Shown piece after piece: positions 1,594 to 51,838 of a stretch of DNA of 64,000 nt (positions are counted from its first letter, which is position 1; each line of letters opens with the position of its first letter). Source of the DNA: a virus. Below the pieces are notes generated by a model. The model ran no database searches. It saw nothing but the letters and a program-made list of their open reading frames with translations, and was not told where the DNA came from. Both the position numbers and the translations under genes were made by a program. The DNA lies in the IMG/VR virus record IMGVR_UViG_3300020577_005362, positions 2,218 to 66,217 of that record. One strand, written 5' to 3'.

Positions 1594-2689
1594 GCTCCCC
1601 TCGAACCACAACGGCGGCCCGTCCTTGGAAGAGGACGAGAGCGGCGACTTCCGCATCCGCTACATGCGCATCCACATCAACGACTGGCGCGCCTCGACGG
1701 CAAATCTGCTGCCCGAGCAGGGCTGGCTGTTCCTCAAGCTGATGATGGAGATGTATGACCGGGGCGGTCCCTTGCCCAACGACGACGCCTACAACGCGCG
1801 TCTGGTCGGCTTCGAAATCCGCACCTACCGGCGCGTGCTCCGTCAGCTGATCTTGATGGGCAAGATCCACGTCGCGCAGATGCAGCCCGCCGACAAGGGC
1901 ACGCTGTTCCACCCGCGCACGATACGCGAAATCGAGCAGGCGGTTTTGGAGCACAAGAAGCGTCGCGCGGCCGCCCTTCAGCGCGAGGAAGATCGGCGTA
2001 AAGGGGCTCGTGTTGCTGATGAGATCCGGCCGACTTCGGGCGGACTTCCGGCCGACTTCCGGCCGACTTCGGCCGAACTTCCGGCCGACTTCCAGCCGAA
2101 GTCCGGCGAACTTCTGCCCGAGCTAAGCCCCGATCTTTCCGAAAAAGTCAATGAAATCAATGGGTGCGCCGCCACGACTGTGACCACAAGCGGACCACAG
2201 CCCTCGCGGGCGCGCGCGTTTCCTAAGCCTAAGCCAATAAAGAAAGAAGAAGAAAGAGCGGCGCCTAGCGACGCCGCCGATGCTCTCCAACCTTTGGTCA
2301 GGGGGAGCGTGCGGTGGGCGTACAACGCCTACAACGAGGTCGCCAATCGGATCGGTCTCCCGCTCGCCGTCGCGCTCACCGAAGCGCGCGTCAAGGCGAT
2401 CCGTGTCCGGCTCAAGGAGTTCGGGCCCGAGGGGTGGGAGACGGCGCTCGCCAACATCGAGCGCAACCCGTTCATGCGCGGCCGCAACGACCGCGGCTGG
2501 CGCGCAAGCCTCGACTACGTGCTCCAGGCCAAGAGCTACGCCAAGCTCGTCGAGGGCGCCGCAGGGCGCCGTGATGTCGGGCTGCGGCCTGCGCAGGCTG
2601 CCGATCTCGCGAAGGTCTACGAGGACGACCAGTTCGCCCGCGACCTTGAGAAGGCCGCTGCGCTCGAGCGCGGGGACTTCAATCAATGA
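1583..2689 (+). CDS. Phage replication initiator, DUF1376/YdaU family
   Basis: RBS aggagg before ATG 1583; N-terminal YMRIHINDWRASTANL..EQGWLFLKLMMEMYDRGGPLPNDD; C-terminal FMRGRNDRGWRASLDYVL; internal iterons. Confidence 0.85.
   Translation: MLTRLPSNHNGGPSLEEDESGDFRIRYMRIHINDWRASTANLLPEQGWLFLKLMMEMYDRGGPLPNDDAYNARLVGFEIRTYRRVLRQLILMGKIHVAQMQPADKGTLFHPRTIREIEQAVLEHKKRRAAALQREEDRRKGARVADEIRPTSGGLPADFRPTSAELPADFQPKSGELLPELSPDLSEKVNEINGCAATTVTTSGPQPSRARAFPKPKPIKKEEERAAPSDAADALQPLVRGSVRWAYNAYNEVANRIGLPLAVALTEARVKAIRVRLKEFGPEGWETALANIERNPFMRGRNDRGWRASLDYVLQAKSYAKLVEGAAGRRDVGLRPAQAADLAKVYEDDQFARDLEKAAALERGDFNQ
2027..2114 (+). repeat. Eight tandem 11-bp iterons (consensus CGGCCGACTTC), putative replication origin
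   Basis: Units at 2027, 2038, 2049, 2060, 2071, 2082, 2093, 2104; A-rich tracts follow at about 2141-2160 and 2236-2257. Confidence 0.8.
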
Positions 2690-3312
2690 AAACCCTTGCC
2701 CAGCTTCTCGCCGACGAGGGGATCACGTTTCGGCACGCCCCGCGCACCGGCCAGAACGCCACCATCTGCCCCAAGTGCTCGCACCTCCGAAAGCCGATGA
2801 ACAGGCGAAAGCCCTGCCTCGGCGTCCACATCGACGACCGAGGCATCCGAGCCCACTGCGCGCACTGCCACCACACCGCTGCACGATTTTTCGACGAGGA
2901 CGAGAATGCTGGATCAGGTCAGGACCGAGCTACAGTTGAGCGAACGGCACGCCATGTGGCTCGAGGACGTGCGAAAGATCCCGTGCGAACTGGCGGCCGA
3001 GTTGGGGATCGTGTCGAAGGGTCCGCACCTCGCGTTCGAGTATCGTCGGCACGGACAGTTGCTGTTTCGACAGATCCGCAAGGAGCTGCCGGGCGGCGAC
3101 AAGACGTTCCGGCTGGAGGCCCCGGACGGCCGCACGCTCAAGGAAGCGGGCATCGGGCTGTCGTTCTGGCAGGAGGACGACCTGACCGGGTCGTCGTCAC
3201 CGGATGTTCCCAGGATCATCACGGAAGGCCAGTTCGACACGGCGGCGTTTCGACTGGCGGGCTTTCCGCTCGTCGGATCTGTACCGAACGGCGCGAGCGG
3301 CCGACCGAGTGA
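2686..3312 (+). CDS. Primase zinc-binding domain (T7 gp4/Twinkle-type N-terminus); only the first ~70 aa look genuine
   Basis: ICPKCSHLRK..PCLGVHID..AHCAHCH Zn-finger; remainder overlaps the next gene out of frame. Confidence 0.7.
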   Translation: MKTLAQLLADEGITFRHAPRTGQNATICPKCSHLRKPMNRRKPCLGVHIDDRGIRAHCAHCHHTAARFFDEDENAGSGQDRATVERTARHVARGRAKDPVRTGGRVGDRVEGSAPRVRVSSARTVAVSTDPQGAAGRRQDVPAGGPGRPHAQGSGHRAVVLAGGRPDRVVVTGCSQDHHGRPVRHGGVSTGGLSARRICTERRERPTE

Positions 3313-16426: not shown

Positions 16427-16560
16427 GAAAACAGTGGTGCCACGCGGACACTGTTTCGGCCAACTCCTGTGGAAAACATGGACAGTCGAGAAACAGTTCG
16501 AAACCGACAAAGAAAAAGCCCCGGCCTTTTGGACCGGGGCGAAACGGTGCGAAACCGTTC
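16427..16560. repeat. Cluster of GAAACNGT-like repeats
   Basis: Copies at 16490, 16500, 16541, 16551 (10-bp-spaced pairs), inverted at 16450-16457, variant at 16427. Confidence 0.6.
16508..16540 (-). terminator. Intrinsic terminator for 16560..17498
   Basis: gccccggtcc-aaaa-ggccggggc followed by TTTTTCTTT on the minus strand. Confidence 0.75.
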
Positions 16561-17498
16561 TAGTGCATCAGGCTGATTTGGACCTCGCGACCGACACGCT
16601 CCCTGCGGAGCAATTTCTGCCGGTCGGAAACCCACTTCGACGCCGTGCTCTTGGAAACCTGCAACATGGCGGCAAGTTCGTCGTTGGTGACGGGCTTACC
16701 GACAGTGCGAAGAGCCTCAACGACCGGATCGACCTCGATGACGACTTCCTGCTTGGGGGCAGGCAGAACCTTCATCGTGCCGCCAGTCGGCATCGTCGGC
16801 GCGGCGATCTTGATGACTTTCGTGTGGCCGAAGCCAAGGCCGAAGAACACGATTGTCGCCAGTTCCAAGATCAGCGCCTTGGCGAGCGGGGTGATGAGAC
16901 CGATGGCCTTTTCGATCTCCTGAACCGGAGCGCGAATGACGAGCGCGACTAGCTCGGCAGTGTACCGCAGTTCTCCGTTCGCCTGCTCCGAGGGTTGCAG
17001 CCTATCAAGACGAACCTCGTAGAGGCGGACTTGATCGTCAGCCGCTTCGAGTGCAGTCTTCAACCCATCGCAGCGAAGCCCTTTACCCGACGCGCACTCC
17101 TTGGCGAGATTGGCGCTTGCGGATGCACGCGCGTCGCGGGCCTTCTTGAGTTCGATCTCGGCGTCCTTGCGGGCATCCGCGATCTTCGTGGCCTCGGCCT
17201 CCCGATGCTGGGCAACCTTGGCGGCGCGTCCGGCCGAACCCGAGACGCAGAAGTAAGTGCCACCTGCAAAAACCAACGCCAGCCCAATCGCCGACATCAG
17301 CCTAAGTGCCTTGACCGCAGGCCAGAACATATGTCCGGCTGCAATCGTGCCCAAGATCACCAGCACAGTCATCACGTGGTCGGTCGTGAATTCTGCGCCG
17401 TGCCGCACGTCATCGAGGATGACTGCGGTCGTGCCGAGGGCGAAAATCGCTCCGAGACCCATTGCAGGCCAGGAACGAATGGTGGTAGTATATGCCAT
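16560..17498 (-). CDS. Multi-TM/coiled-coil/TM/winged-helix protein
   Basis: Three N-terminal hydrophobic helices, coiled coil with C-x6-C, fourth TM, C-terminal VTNDELAAMLQVSKSTASKWV HTH. Confidence 0.8.
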   Translation of the reverse strand: MAYTTTIRSWPAMGLGAIFALGTTAVILDDVRHGAEFTTDHVMTVLVILGTIAAGHMFWPAVKALRLMSAIGLALVFAGGTYFCVSGSAGRAAKVAQHREAEATKIADARKDAEIELKKARDARASASANLAKECASGKGLRCDGLKTALEAADDQVRLYEVRLDRLQPSEQANGELRYTAELVALVIRAPVQEIEKAIGLITPLAKALILELATIVFFGLGFGHTKVIKIAAPTMPTGGTMKVLPAPKQEVVIEVDPVVEALRTVGKPVTNDELAAMLQVSKSTASKWVSDRQKLLRRERVGREVQISLMH

Positions 17499-17585
17499 AG
17501 TCGCTAACTCCCTTGGTGGGGTGGTTGGATGACAGTCAAGGCTCGGGAGGGTTGCGCCCCTTCCGGGCCTTTCGCATTTCTGATG

Positions 17586-17639
17586 GGCCTCATCAGCTAC
17601 CGCTTTACGGTAGGACCGGGATTGCTCCCGGTTTCGGCC
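17586..17639 (-). ncRNA. Type II hammerhead ribozyme
   Basis: Minus strand GGCC-GAAA-CCGGGA(gcaa)UCCCGG-UC/CUACCG(uaaag)CGGUAG-CUGAUGA-GGCC: all core nucleotides and three stems present; predicted cut between 17614 and 17613. Confidence 0.92.
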
Positions 17640-17786
17640 TTAGCTGTGCACTGGTAGCGACCACATTGCGAGGTTGGCCAGATTGAGCGCCACCCACCCC
17701 CATTGCCCGTTAAGCGCGAACGCCAGGATCAGGAGAAGGCAGACCGGGATCATGACCCACCGAAGCACGCGGAAAAACTTGTCCAT
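17640..17786 (-). CDS. 48-aa two-TM peptide
   Basis: MDKFFRVLRWVMIPVCLLLILAFALNGQWGWVALNLANLAMWSLPVHS; RBS gaggtg; stop abuts the hammerhead. Confidence 0.7.
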   Translation of the reverse strand: MDKFFRVLRWVMIPVCLLLILAFALNGQWGWVALNLANLAMWSLPVHS

Positions 17787-17807: not shown

Positions 17808-17915
17808 GTAACCTTAATGTAACCCATCCGGTTACATAAATCAAGTAGTACGCACCGTCGTTCCGATCAATTTTTTGTGATCTAATAGGGTCTATTAGAA
17901 CTCATCCGGTTACGT
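17808..17915. promoter_or_regulatory. Leftward promoter with palindromic operator; second operator copy before the RHH gene
   Basis: Minus TTGATT-N17-TACATT (17844-17816) with GTAACC-n5-GGTTAC (17819-17835) in the spacer; CATCCGGTTAC repeated at about 17903-17913. Confidence 0.7.
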
Positions 17916-17927
17916 TATATACAAGCC

Positions 17928-18116
17928 ATGAAAACACCGCGTAGAGGCCGCCCGCCTAAACAGGGCAAACCGCTGATGGCAGCGCTTACGATCCGCATGC
18001 CGCAGGCGATGATGGATGAGATCGAGCGCCGCGCCGTCGATCAGGCTGATAACGGCAAAGACAAAGCCGACATCATCCGCGAACTTATTGCGCGGGGGCT
18101 TGGTTGGGCAAAATGA
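17928..18116 (+). CDS. Ribbon-helix-helix (Arc/CopG-like) regulator, probably leaderless
   Basis: RRGRPP, LTIRMPQAMMDEIERRA, KADIIRELIARGL. Confidence 0.8.
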   Translation: MKTPRRGRPPKQGKPLMAALTIRMPQAMMDEIERRAVDQADNGKDKADIIRELIARGLGWAK

Positions 18117-20255: not shown

Positions 20256-20828
20256 ATGGCTAGTAAAAACAAGGGGAAGGCCCAGGTTCAAAAGTCCCGC
20301 AAGACGAAGCGCGACACGAGCCCGAAGCAGGCGGCCAAGGACATCGAGCGCATGGAGTGGATCGATACCGCTCTCGCGCTGCGCCGCAAGGCGTGGAACT
20401 ACCGCCGCATCGCCGCTGAAATGTCCAAGCCCAAGGGCGAAGGCCACGGCATCGGACGGTCGGTCGCGTTCTCGACTGTCGCGAAATGGGTCAAGGAGGG
20501 GATGGACATGATCCCCGTCGAGAATGCCGAGATCGTCAAGCAGATGCACCTCGACCGCCTCGACGAACTGATGCGCATGACATGGCGCGAAGTTGAGGAA
20601 GCCGACGAGGCCAACGAGGGCGTATCGCCCGCAGTCTTCAGCCGCGTGATGCGCATCATGGACCGGCAGGCCCAATATATCGGCCTCTACGCGCCGGAGG
20701 GTGGCGGCAGCGCTGCCAACCGCATCGCGGACGCGTTCGCCGACCCCGACAACTACGCGAAGATCGTCGCCGCCAGCGCGCCGACCATCAGCCCAGATGG
20801 GCCCATGCCCGTCAATCCGATCCTTTAG
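20256..20828 (+). CDS. terS: Terminase small subunit
   Basis: ALALRRKAWNYRRIA HTH, IMDRQAQYIGLYAP motif; directly upstream of terL. Confidence 0.75.
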   Translation: MASKNKGKAQVQKSRKTKRDTSPKQAAKDIERMEWIDTALALRRKAWNYRRIAAEMSKPKGEGHGIGRSVAFSTVAKWVKEGMDMIPVENAEIVKQMHLDRLDELMRMTWREVEEADEANEGVSPAVFSRVMRIMDRQAQYIGLYAPEGGGSAANRIADAFADPDNYAKIVAASAPTISPDGPMPVNPIL

Positions 20829-51711: not shown

Positions 51712-51750
51712 GCCGCCTTAGCTCAGTTGGTTAGAGCACCAGATTGTGGA
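51712..51750 (+). tRNA. 5' half of tRNA-His(GTG); att core, not a complete tRNA
   Basis: GCCGCCTTAGCTCAGTTGGTTAGAGCACCAGATTGTGGA; tRNA similarity stops at the end of the anticodon loop. Confidence 0.88.
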
Positions 51751-51838
51751 ACTCGTGGTCCCTTTCTGATGCGGTTGAAAATTCAATCGCTTACGTCGTG
51801 TTTTTTCGTTCTGTGGGGGTTTTTGTGTGGGTTTGCCT

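Follow-up and report, generated by a model that had tools for sequence, protein, structure and literature searches.

The 64-kb stretch of DNA analyzed here (the window), which makes up most of a 66-kb IMG/VR virus record, carries on its minus strand a complete type II hammerhead ribozyme of 54 nucleotides (nt; 17639-17586), as established by direct reading of the sequence. The element lies between a gene for a hydrophobic peptide of 48 amino acids (aa) and a gene for a 312-aa membrane protein with a C-terminal helix-turn-helix (HTH) region, and on sequence grounds it probably splits the message that is common to these two genes of an uncultured phage. We consider it likely that the element is a real and evolutionarily maintained type II hammerhead, which divides the two-gene message by a mechanism in which the RNA is cut and the catalytic core is subsequently masked by a short 3' tail.

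Anatomy of the ribozyme

All residues that define a hammerhead were recovered. The core requirement C3-U4-G5-A6-N7-G8-A9 is satisfied by CUGAUGA at 17596-17590, and G12-A13-A14, the pair A15.1-U16.1 (A 17632 / U 17615) and H17 (C 17614) are all present, as is the pair G10.1-C11.1 that closes stem II (G 17589 with C 17636). Stem II is open and stems I and III are capped by loops, which makes the permutation type II. Given that C17 sits at 17614, the cut is predicted to fall between 17614 and 17613. The original prediction, which had been made from the letters alone, had described a complete type II hammerhead with the core CUGAUGA/GAAA, a GUC triplet and stems of 6, 4 and 7 base pairs (bp), and direct reading confirms that description; the placement on the sense strand, the abutment on the stop codon and the new 5' end at 17613 agree with the positions as well. 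The coordinates of the parts and of the surrounding features are collected in Table 1.

The hammerhead is the minimum-energy structure of the 54-mer (-26.1 kcal/mol, z -3.85), and none of 200 shuffles equalled that energy. A descriptor scan of both strands returned this one hammerhead site only in the window. When 1000 dinucleotide shuffles of the 64-kb window were scanned, a loose descriptor (stems of at least 4/3/3 bp, three topologies) gave 4 matches in total and a strict one (at least 6/4/6 bp) gave none, which puts the chance expectation for the strict descriptor below 0.001 per window. A chance motif was rejected on the basis of these window shuffles and of the covariation within the family that is described below.

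Table 1. Features of the ribozyme and of the two-gene unit, in window coordinates
Feature	Position	Strand	Basis and remarks
Putative leftward promoter TTGATT-17 nt-TACATT	17816..17844	-	By eye; 8/12 positions, weak, under the cut of the scanner
Upstream open reading frame, 48-aa hydrophobic peptide (P0002)	17640..17786	-	Translation; G+C at third codon positions 0.80
Type II hammerhead ribozyme	17586..17639	-	Sequence reading, minimum-energy fold, descriptor scan, RF02276 24.5 bits, subgroup model R1 76 bits
Stem II, 5' strand GGCC	17636..17639	-	Pairs with 17586-17589; sequence and fold
G12-A14, GAA	17635-17633	-	Directly 5' of the stem III hairpin
Stem III hairpin, 7 bp including A15.1-U16.1, GCAA loop	17615..17632	-	Sequence; covariation
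Predicted cleavage site, between C17 (17614) and 17613; new 5'-OH end 17613	17613..17614	-	Deduced from the consensus; triplet GUC at 17616-17614
Stem I hairpin, 6 bp, loop UAAAG	17597..17613	-	Covariation; loop matches the subgroup consensus
Catalytic core strand CUGAUGA (C3-A9)	17590..17596	-	Sequence
Stem II, 3' strand GGCC (G10.1 = 17589)	17586..17589	-	Sequence
Anti-core tail CAUCAG, predicted 6-bp hairpin with C3-G8 (CUGAUG), excludes the active fold	17580..17585	-	Predicted pairing; covariation
GC-rich bulged hairpin, leader of the downstream gene	17538..17571	-	Predicted fold
Ribosome-binding site AAGGGAG, 9 nt 5' of the ATG at 17498	17508..17514	-	Sequence
Downstream gene, 312-aa protein (P0001)	16560..17498	-	N-terminal membrane helices, coiled middle with two conserved Cys, C-terminal HTH
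Intrinsic terminator-like hairpin and T run	16518..16540	-	Terminator scan; 20 nt past the second gene

A phage subgroup with a GGCC stem II

The ribozyme belongs to a subgroup of phage hammerheads that could be recovered with a sequence pattern. The pattern (GGCCGAAACC, a gap, GGTC, a gap and CTGAYGAGGCC) was built from the fixed parts of the window element and of the copies in related loci and run on viral contigs, where it matched at least 119 stretches. The 136 matches reduced to 114 unique copies with a first key; after a nested match had been dropped and flanks were required, 134 matches and 111 unique copies remained. These 111, which are the unique copies among the matches listed and include the window and the loci L013 and L017, underlie all counts given below for the subgroup, unless another sample is named.

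The pairing of the stems is maintained through compensatory change. In a gapless alignment of 20 copies that have the length of the window element, 99.7% of the cells were paired, and all 10 pairs that the pattern leaves free (4 in stem III and 6 in stem I) change on both sides. The covariation score was reached in 0 of 500 shuffles, and sliding the partner by 1-3 columns reduced the pairing to 24-42%. A 17-nt stem I hairpin is present in 92 copies, in which 550 of the 552 cells of stem I were paired. For stem II no covariation is obtainable, because this stem is fixed by the search pattern. Conservation extends to unpaired bases beyond the core: an A directly precedes stem II in all 111 copies, and loop I follows the consensus U-N-A-N-G (U7 in 91, A9 in 71 and G11 in 78 of the 92), to which the UAAAG of the window conforms. 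The window element has the A at -1, the GGCC/GGCC stem II, the CC/GG base of stem III, the 17-nt stem I hairpin and the closing G-C pair.

The copies also share their position relative to the preceding gene. In 109 of the 111, the end of an open reading frame (ORF) of 30 codons or more lies immediately upstream, and in 86 of these 109 the hammerhead starts at most 2 nt from the stop codon. Stop codon and stem II share one base in 47 copies (UAG, the G of which is the first G of GGCC); in 17, including that of the window, the stop codon abuts the stem, and it is 1 nt off in 7 and 2 nt off in 15. As read from the copies, the start at a stop codon is thus a trait of the subgroup. In the window, the TAA of the 48-aa ORF occupies 17642-17640 and the ribozyme begins at the next base, so that A 17640, the last base of the stop codon, is at the same time the conserved A immediately 5' of stem II. 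In the subgroup, a median of 27-31 nt separates the ribozyme from the next plausible start codon; the 87 nt between the end of the ribozyme and the start of the 312-aa ORF, which span the GC-rich hairpin and the ribosome-binding site, are at the long end.

Contigs of four runs (X2-X5) indicated that the element is repeated. In three of these runs (X2-X4), contig depth over the ribozyme stretch (17578-17642) was about 5-35-fold that of the flanks; the record types of the four runs are 'DNA?' for two and '?' for two, and the contig data carry no information on cleavage. Several of the contigs match only 17586-17642 and then continue into unrelated sequence, and contigs break or switch partner inside the element. 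Because they leave the element in this way, it recurs as a short repeat in other genomes of the same communities. In one variant among the run contigs, the third A of loop I is a G, at an N position of the loop consensus.

Detection with covariance models

The original prediction had named an Infernal search with the Rfam model for type II hammerheads (Hammerhead_II, RF02276) as a check, and this check failed: the site scored 24.5 bits against a cut-off of 37, with an E value of 0.005 when 241 bases were searched. No Rfam match at the gathering level was obtained for the window site. Across the whole window RF02276 gave nothing at E<=1, and the site was also unlisted in a search of the window's own record, in which the model gave two weak matches of 13 and 12 bits. 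The gathering score of 37 bits is the cut-off chosen by the curators and does not stand for a biochemical feature. RF02276 was also run on 21 unique subgroup copies from 18 loci; it listed 11 of them at E<=10, and one copy scored at or above 37 bits. Given that only 1 of the 21 reached the cut-off, we attribute the failed check to a weakness of the model for this subgroup.

A dedicated covariance model, R1, was built from 17 copies, with the window, L109 and L122 left out. It scored the window site at 76 bits (E 1.9e-19), and the next best site in the window at 15.3 bits. The R1 score is partly circular, because the search pattern was derived from the window element. That next best site (34586-34510) was rejected as a hammerhead, as it has no stems and a non-consensus core, and so was a 23-bit candidate at 1582-1501 of L016, which is without the GAAA and U16.1.

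A tail that pairs with the catalytic core

Immediately past stem II the window carries the tail CAUCAG, which is followed by AAA at 17579-17577. The core bases that pair with this tail cannot be helical in an active hammerhead, and the tail therefore defines an alternative, inactive fold. Adding the six tail bases to the ribozyme lowered the predicted probability of stem II from 0.98 to 0.23 and three more bases lowered it to 0.05 or less, and the hairpin of core and tail had a predicted probability of 0.77-0.98 once the tail was present. The simple picture of a cutter that is always on changes with this tail, since it pairs with the core and the resulting fold is predicted to be dominant at equilibrium.

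The tail is a recurrent property of the subgroup. The sequence RUCAG was found 0-1 nt past stem II in 31 of the 111 copies, versus 1 of 108 when a control position 60 nt downstream was inspected; with G-U pairs allowed and offsets of 0-2, a tail was found in 35 of the 111. Base 7 is the only free base of the core, and in the 31 tailed copies the combination of base 7 and its partner in the tail is C:G in 16, U:A in 15 and mismatched in none (Fisher 3e-9). The window is of the tailed form with U7, and is one of the 15 U:A copies. The covariation of the tail with the core argues that the tail is under selection. The 31 tailed copies form 17 clusters at 70% identity of the variable stems, 11 with C:G, 5 with U:A and 1 with both states, so that the count does not go back to one inherited event: there are 17 clusters and one of them holds both states among close relatives. 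With the exception of L093, all hammerheads directly before the membrane/HTH gene family have the tail. A second potential masking hairpin, with GCC a few bases past stem II, was not enriched (15 of 80 versus 12 of 78 at the control place). Native 3' flanks did not stand out clearly from shuffled ones in their pairing with the core: tailed copies had a median z of 1.23 and untailed copies one of 0.1, and the z of the window was 0.48. Tailed copies are slightly farther from the next gene (median 31 versus 27 nt). A weak resemblance of the site to a Box C/D-like kink-turn (Rfam sR5, 11.9 bits) was discarded, as the tail reads UCAG rather than CUGA and its partner covaries according to Watson-Crick rules.

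We tentatively propose, as a reading that we hold somewhat more doubtful than probable, that the RUCAG tail is a built-in switch of a widespread subgroup, acting either as a one-way lock after the cut or as a timer that delays the cut. As a lock, the tail would drive the release of the product, block re-ligation and cap the new 5' end with two hairpins. As a timer, tail and abutting stop codon together would couple cutting to transcription and to the translation of the upstream gene. Either version, if true, would mean that the manner and timing of the splitting of a phage message are set by a natural device that needs no protein. A description of a core-masking tail or of the abutment on a stop codon was not found in full-text searches of the literature, which did not extend to supplements; the alignments in Dataset S1 of the 2011 report may show the tail.

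The two-gene unit and its surroundings

The G+C content at third codon positions of the 48-aa ORF is typical of the coding frames in the window, and the peptide is without a match to a Pfam or PHROG family. Residues 271-308 of the 312-aa protein match HTH_17 weakly (E 0.0014, below the cut-off); the protein has 31 homologues with 28-80% identity, some of which carry HTH families of the MarR/IclR type. The terminator scan gave no terminator-like site between the two genes, and the promoter scanner gave no promoter-like site that reached its cut. An 8-nt inverted repeat (17817-17824 / 17830-17837) lies inside the spacer of the putative promoter. Two inverted repeats with an operator-like look were seen in the divergent region, at 17817-17837 (ATGTAACC/GGTTACAT) and at 17881-17899 (TCTAATAG/CTATTAGA).

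On the basis of codon-position G+C, most genes between 8 and 30 kb run rightward, and the peptide and 312-aa ORFs form a small leftward unit among them. The divergent gene, which runs rightward at 17928-18116, has a match to a PHROG of transcriptional repressors (E 7.8e-06) and is followed downstream by an HNH endonuclease, the large terminase and the portal protein. Just 5' of the large terminase, the ORF at 20256-20828 (+) has a PHROG match labelled 'Rnase E' (E 2.1e-14); judged by its position it may be the small terminase. A plus-strand terminator formed by the complement of stem III was considered as well, and was rejected as the scanner did not flag it and no plus-strand gene was seen to read into the complement. 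Elsewhere in the window, a tRNA-like stretch at 51712-51776 (+) scored 24.7 bits against an Rfam cut-off of 29 and contains stem mismatches.

Relatives of the locus

Relatives of the locus were sought in several ways. A single-protein search of viral contigs and a DNA search of phage GenBank records found none. Alignment-based scans gave 13 loci (1 viral, 2 genome and 10 metagenome), and a homologue was present in 4 of the 401 genomes of the order to which a Hyphomicrobium assembly belongs, which provided five more loci. Contigs that encode the nearest protein homologues, P0003-P0008 (61-80% identity), are not among the loci compared.

One relative, L109, is a syntenic phage with 72-77% nucleotide identity over about 11 kb (68-89% across all aligned stretches). 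Its ribozyme stretch is 89.7% identical to that of the window, versus 68-77% for most aligned stretches (one short stretch has 89.0%). The ribozyme of L109 also abuts a TAA, and the ORF that ends there is a different one. In L109, and likewise in L051, L081 and L093, the ribozyme precedes homologues of the 312-aa gene. The Hyphomicrobium genome locus L024, which is the same DNA as L017 and L079, has three hammerheads in three successive gaps of one operon (2983-2920, 2783-2718 and 2432-2366, minus strand), and the third lies directly before a distant homologue of the 312-aa gene. This third copy has the same stem II, tail and following hairpin as the window; its stems I and III differ, yet they pair. 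The L024 hammerheads have a long stem III with a conserved UA/GAU internal loop, and the first of them has a C-A mismatch adjoining its cleavage site (AUC triplet) and may be weakened. The operon leader in L013 contains a type II hammerhead that passes the Rfam cut-off (57.9 bits), and a second hammerhead, of the window's kind, lies in the next gap of the operon. A copy in L013 is situated about 500 nt upstream of the homologue.

Most relatives of the gene have no hammerhead in front and carry the GC-rich hairpin at that place instead. By eye, nearly all homologous loci have a GC-rich bulged hairpin some 40-50 nt 5' of the membrane/HTH gene, whether a hammerhead is present or not. It was seen in the window, in L109, at 2345-2315 (-) of L024 and in L006-L015, including L011 and L013; the sequence varies, the pairing is kept and no T run follows. 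The hairpin may thus be a leader element of the membrane/HTH gene family. When other ribozyme classes were searched for at the same spot in L006-L015, as loci without the hammerhead, no Rfam match was obtained at E<=5. In L007 (1098-1265) and L015 (330-510, plus strand) a small hydrophobic ORF precedes the homologous gene, and the gap of about 190 nt holds several hairpins and no hammerhead.

Further self-cleaving elements were encountered in other contigs. Four subgroup hammerheads, two tailed and two untailed, lie within 1.1 kb of viral contig L031 (2913-4012, plus strand), and three subgroup copies are present in L077 (528-2150, plus strand). L028 has a second type II hammerhead at 2524-2588 (-) that passes the Rfam cut-off with 49.4 bits. 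In L073 a pistol ribozyme match (2853-2927, minus strand; 37.6 bits versus an Rfam cut-off of 34.5) shares the strand of the hammerhead, and different self-cleaving classes are thus found together in such phage regions.

Proposed mechanism and alternative explanations

In the mechanism that we propose, the unit would be transcribed in the order putative promoter, 48-aa peptide gene, ribozyme, hairpin, membrane/HTH gene and terminator. The three helices would form during transcription, and the RNA would cut itself after C 17614. The upstream piece would retain its stop codon with 26 nt after it, and a 2',3'-cyclic phosphate would terminate it at the stem III hairpin; as the cut lies 26 nt past the stop, the upstream message would keep its stop codon well inside the RNA. 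The first base of the downstream piece would bear a 5'-OH and be flush with the stem I hairpin. The core CUGAUG would then be captured by the tail CAUCAG, upon which the 4-bp stem II would open and the halves would separate. In the predicted fold of the 3' product, the new 5' end consists of two hairpins, and the leader hairpin and the ribosome-binding site come after them. The outcome would be two messages with unlinked decay and translation.

The original prediction had held that the ribozyme uncouples the downstream message from the peptide message and stabilises it. The uncoupling stands as the standard and reasonable reading, backed by the presence of the ribozyme before homologues of the gene and by the cleavage reported for clustered prophage hammerheads (PMC3088659). 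The stabilisation of the downstream message is conjectural, and cleavage in the cell, the order of events (cut before masking) and any effect on the half-life of the mRNA are inferred rather than observed. A 5'-OH is a poor activator of RNase E, and in the case of glmS it makes the RNA a substrate of RNase J.

Several observations weigh against a maintained hammerhead that cuts before it is masked. The window element does not pass RF02276, and the R1 score and the size of the family depend partly on a pattern that was drawn from the window element itself. Neither the 3' tail nor the 5' flank contains, by eye, a complement of the loop UAAAG, so that a pseudoknot between loop I and the 3' tail is absent. 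Many homologues are without a preceding hammerhead (L003-L012, L014, L015 and L020-L023), and the ribozyme is thus dispensable for the membrane/HTH gene. Among the runs listed with the stretch, none is on record as RNA. Finally, nearest-neighbour folding predicts that, once the tail exists, the masked form is more stable than the active fold by about 3 kcal/mol (-29.0 versus -25.9), and masking might therefore precede the cut.

The last point leads to what we regard as the main rival, a brake or timer in which the tail comes before the cut. The modelled energies favour that order; overall we deem it possible but clearly less probable than the order cut, then mask. In such a gated or delayed ribozyme the tail pairing would form first or dominate, most molecules would be off and cleavage would be slow or partial. 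The extent of cutting would be set by the speed of transcription and by ribosomes, which would tune the ratio of linked to unlinked message, and the 5' strand of stem II would be hidden under a ribosome that halts at the adjoining stop codon. The predicted dominance of the masked fold once the tail is out, the selection evident from the covariation of tail and core, and the close spacing of hammerhead and upstream stop codon, down to the one-base overlap, are all consistent with gating. However, the energy model omits the tertiary contacts and the Mg2+ that stabilise active hammerheads, 80 of the 111 copies are untailed and yet lie in the same kind of gap, and the abutment on stop codons may be plain genome compaction.

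The other alternatives concern the consequence of the cut, or its existence. Cleavage could lower the expression of the downstream gene if the 5'-OH product were degraded by a 5'-exonuclease such as RNase J, as for glmS, and some alphaproteobacteria have RNase J. Cellular RNases degrade glmS mRNA after cleavage (PMC6765202). We nevertheless think this improbable here: the new 5' end is flush in stem I and followed by a second hairpin, which should hinder a 5' exonuclease, and the short median distance between the subgroup ribozymes and the next start codon fits the delivery of a translatable message. That the element has no catalysis, being a chance match or a decayed relic that now only provides intergenic hairpins, would agree with its score below the Rfam cut-off, with the lack of the known pseudoknot and with the more stable masked fold. 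It is a very unlikely explanation for a site with every core base intact, with covariation throughout its family and without a strict match in 1000 shuffles, the more so as the stretch is better conserved in L109 than most other aligned stretches and the same element precedes homologous genes in diverged phages. A system of cutting and joining that yields circular or spliced RNA was raised in 2011 for clustered hammerheads, for which such products went undetected according to that report (PMC3088659). Given the single hammerhead in the window and in the whole 66-kb record, there is no second cut site available, and we attach next to no probability to it. Our preferred reading thus remains that of a maintained hammerhead which cuts the two-gene message and is then masked by its tail.

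Comparison with known systems

Type II hammerheads were described in a report of 2011, which also documented that they are abundant in bacteria, are linked to prophages and cluster around single genes (PMC3088659). Triple arrangements of hammerheads, taken from two alphaproteobacteria and from a Clostridium, underwent cleavage in vitro, as did one such arrangement in vivo in E. coli; it was proposed that prophage hammerheads cut long messages into gene-length pieces (PMC3088659). Three type II hammerheads were found to cleave in Desulfovibrio cells in 2021 (PMC8782182), and a review of 2019 termed the role of such ribozymes 'largely elusive' (PMC6765202). It has been known since 2011 that type II hammerheads occur in clusters and cut the messages of prophages, and the core of our finding is therefore ordinary: in chemistry as well as in setting, the element is a usual representative of a known class. 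The abutment on the stop codon and the tail that pairs with the core are the two details for which full-text searches gave no published description.

These details, and the subgroup as such, have some wider implications. The subgroup is mostly invisible to the Rfam model and is therefore missed by routine annotation. The homologues of the two-gene unit with and without the ribozyme offer a natural comparison for the effect of cutting on the message. A tail that covaries with the sole free base of the core hints that natural hammerheads may carry their own off-switch, which bears on the use of bacterial self-cleaving ribozymes and on the design of ribozyme insulators.

The window element shares with the type II hammerheads of RF02276 the core, the three-way junction, the permutation, the A before stem II and the location in intergenic gaps of phages (PMC3088659). 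It deviates from the type II consensus as given in the 2011 report in that stem II has 4 bp (GGCC) instead of 2 bp. A majority of the hammerheads in that report have a pseudoknot of at least 4 bp between loop I and the bases just 3' of stem II, which was found critical for speed in the consensus type II (PMC3088659), whereas the subgroup has the U-N-A-N-G loop I and, in the 31 tailed copies, a tail that pairs with the core. The clustered hammerheads in prophages of Agrobacterium tumefaciens, Azorhizobium caulinodans and Clostridium scindens likewise lie in the gaps of polycistronic phage messages; the relatives in L013 and L024 carry two or three in succession as well, and the proposed message-cutting role is common to both. 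In contrast to these clustered cases (PMC3088659), the window has a single copy, in a two-gene unit next to a divergent regulatory region, and the flanking genes encode a peptide and a membrane/HTH protein, where ardA is the gene named in that report.

The type II hammerheads of Desulfovibrio vulgaris, active in cells according to cyPhyRNA-seq (PMC8782182), are short as well and give products of similar size: 29-32 nt and 39 nt were published, versus 26 nt here (28 to the stem II end). They differ from the window element in their host. The layout of ribozyme, hairpin and ribosome-binding site is moreover that of the RiboJ-type insulators, a likeness that is restricted to the layout and implies no membership. 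In these insulators, which were engineered from a type III hammerhead of a satellite RNA, a hammerhead and then a hairpin precede the ribosome-binding site, and the cut removes the upstream context. The glmS ribozyme (PMC6765202), finally, resembles the window element in that self-cleavage takes place in an mRNA leader and the 5'-OH decides the fate of the downstream message; it differs in its fold, in its metabolite cofactor, for which no ligand pocket is evident here, and in its outcome, which as described for glmS is the decay of the message.

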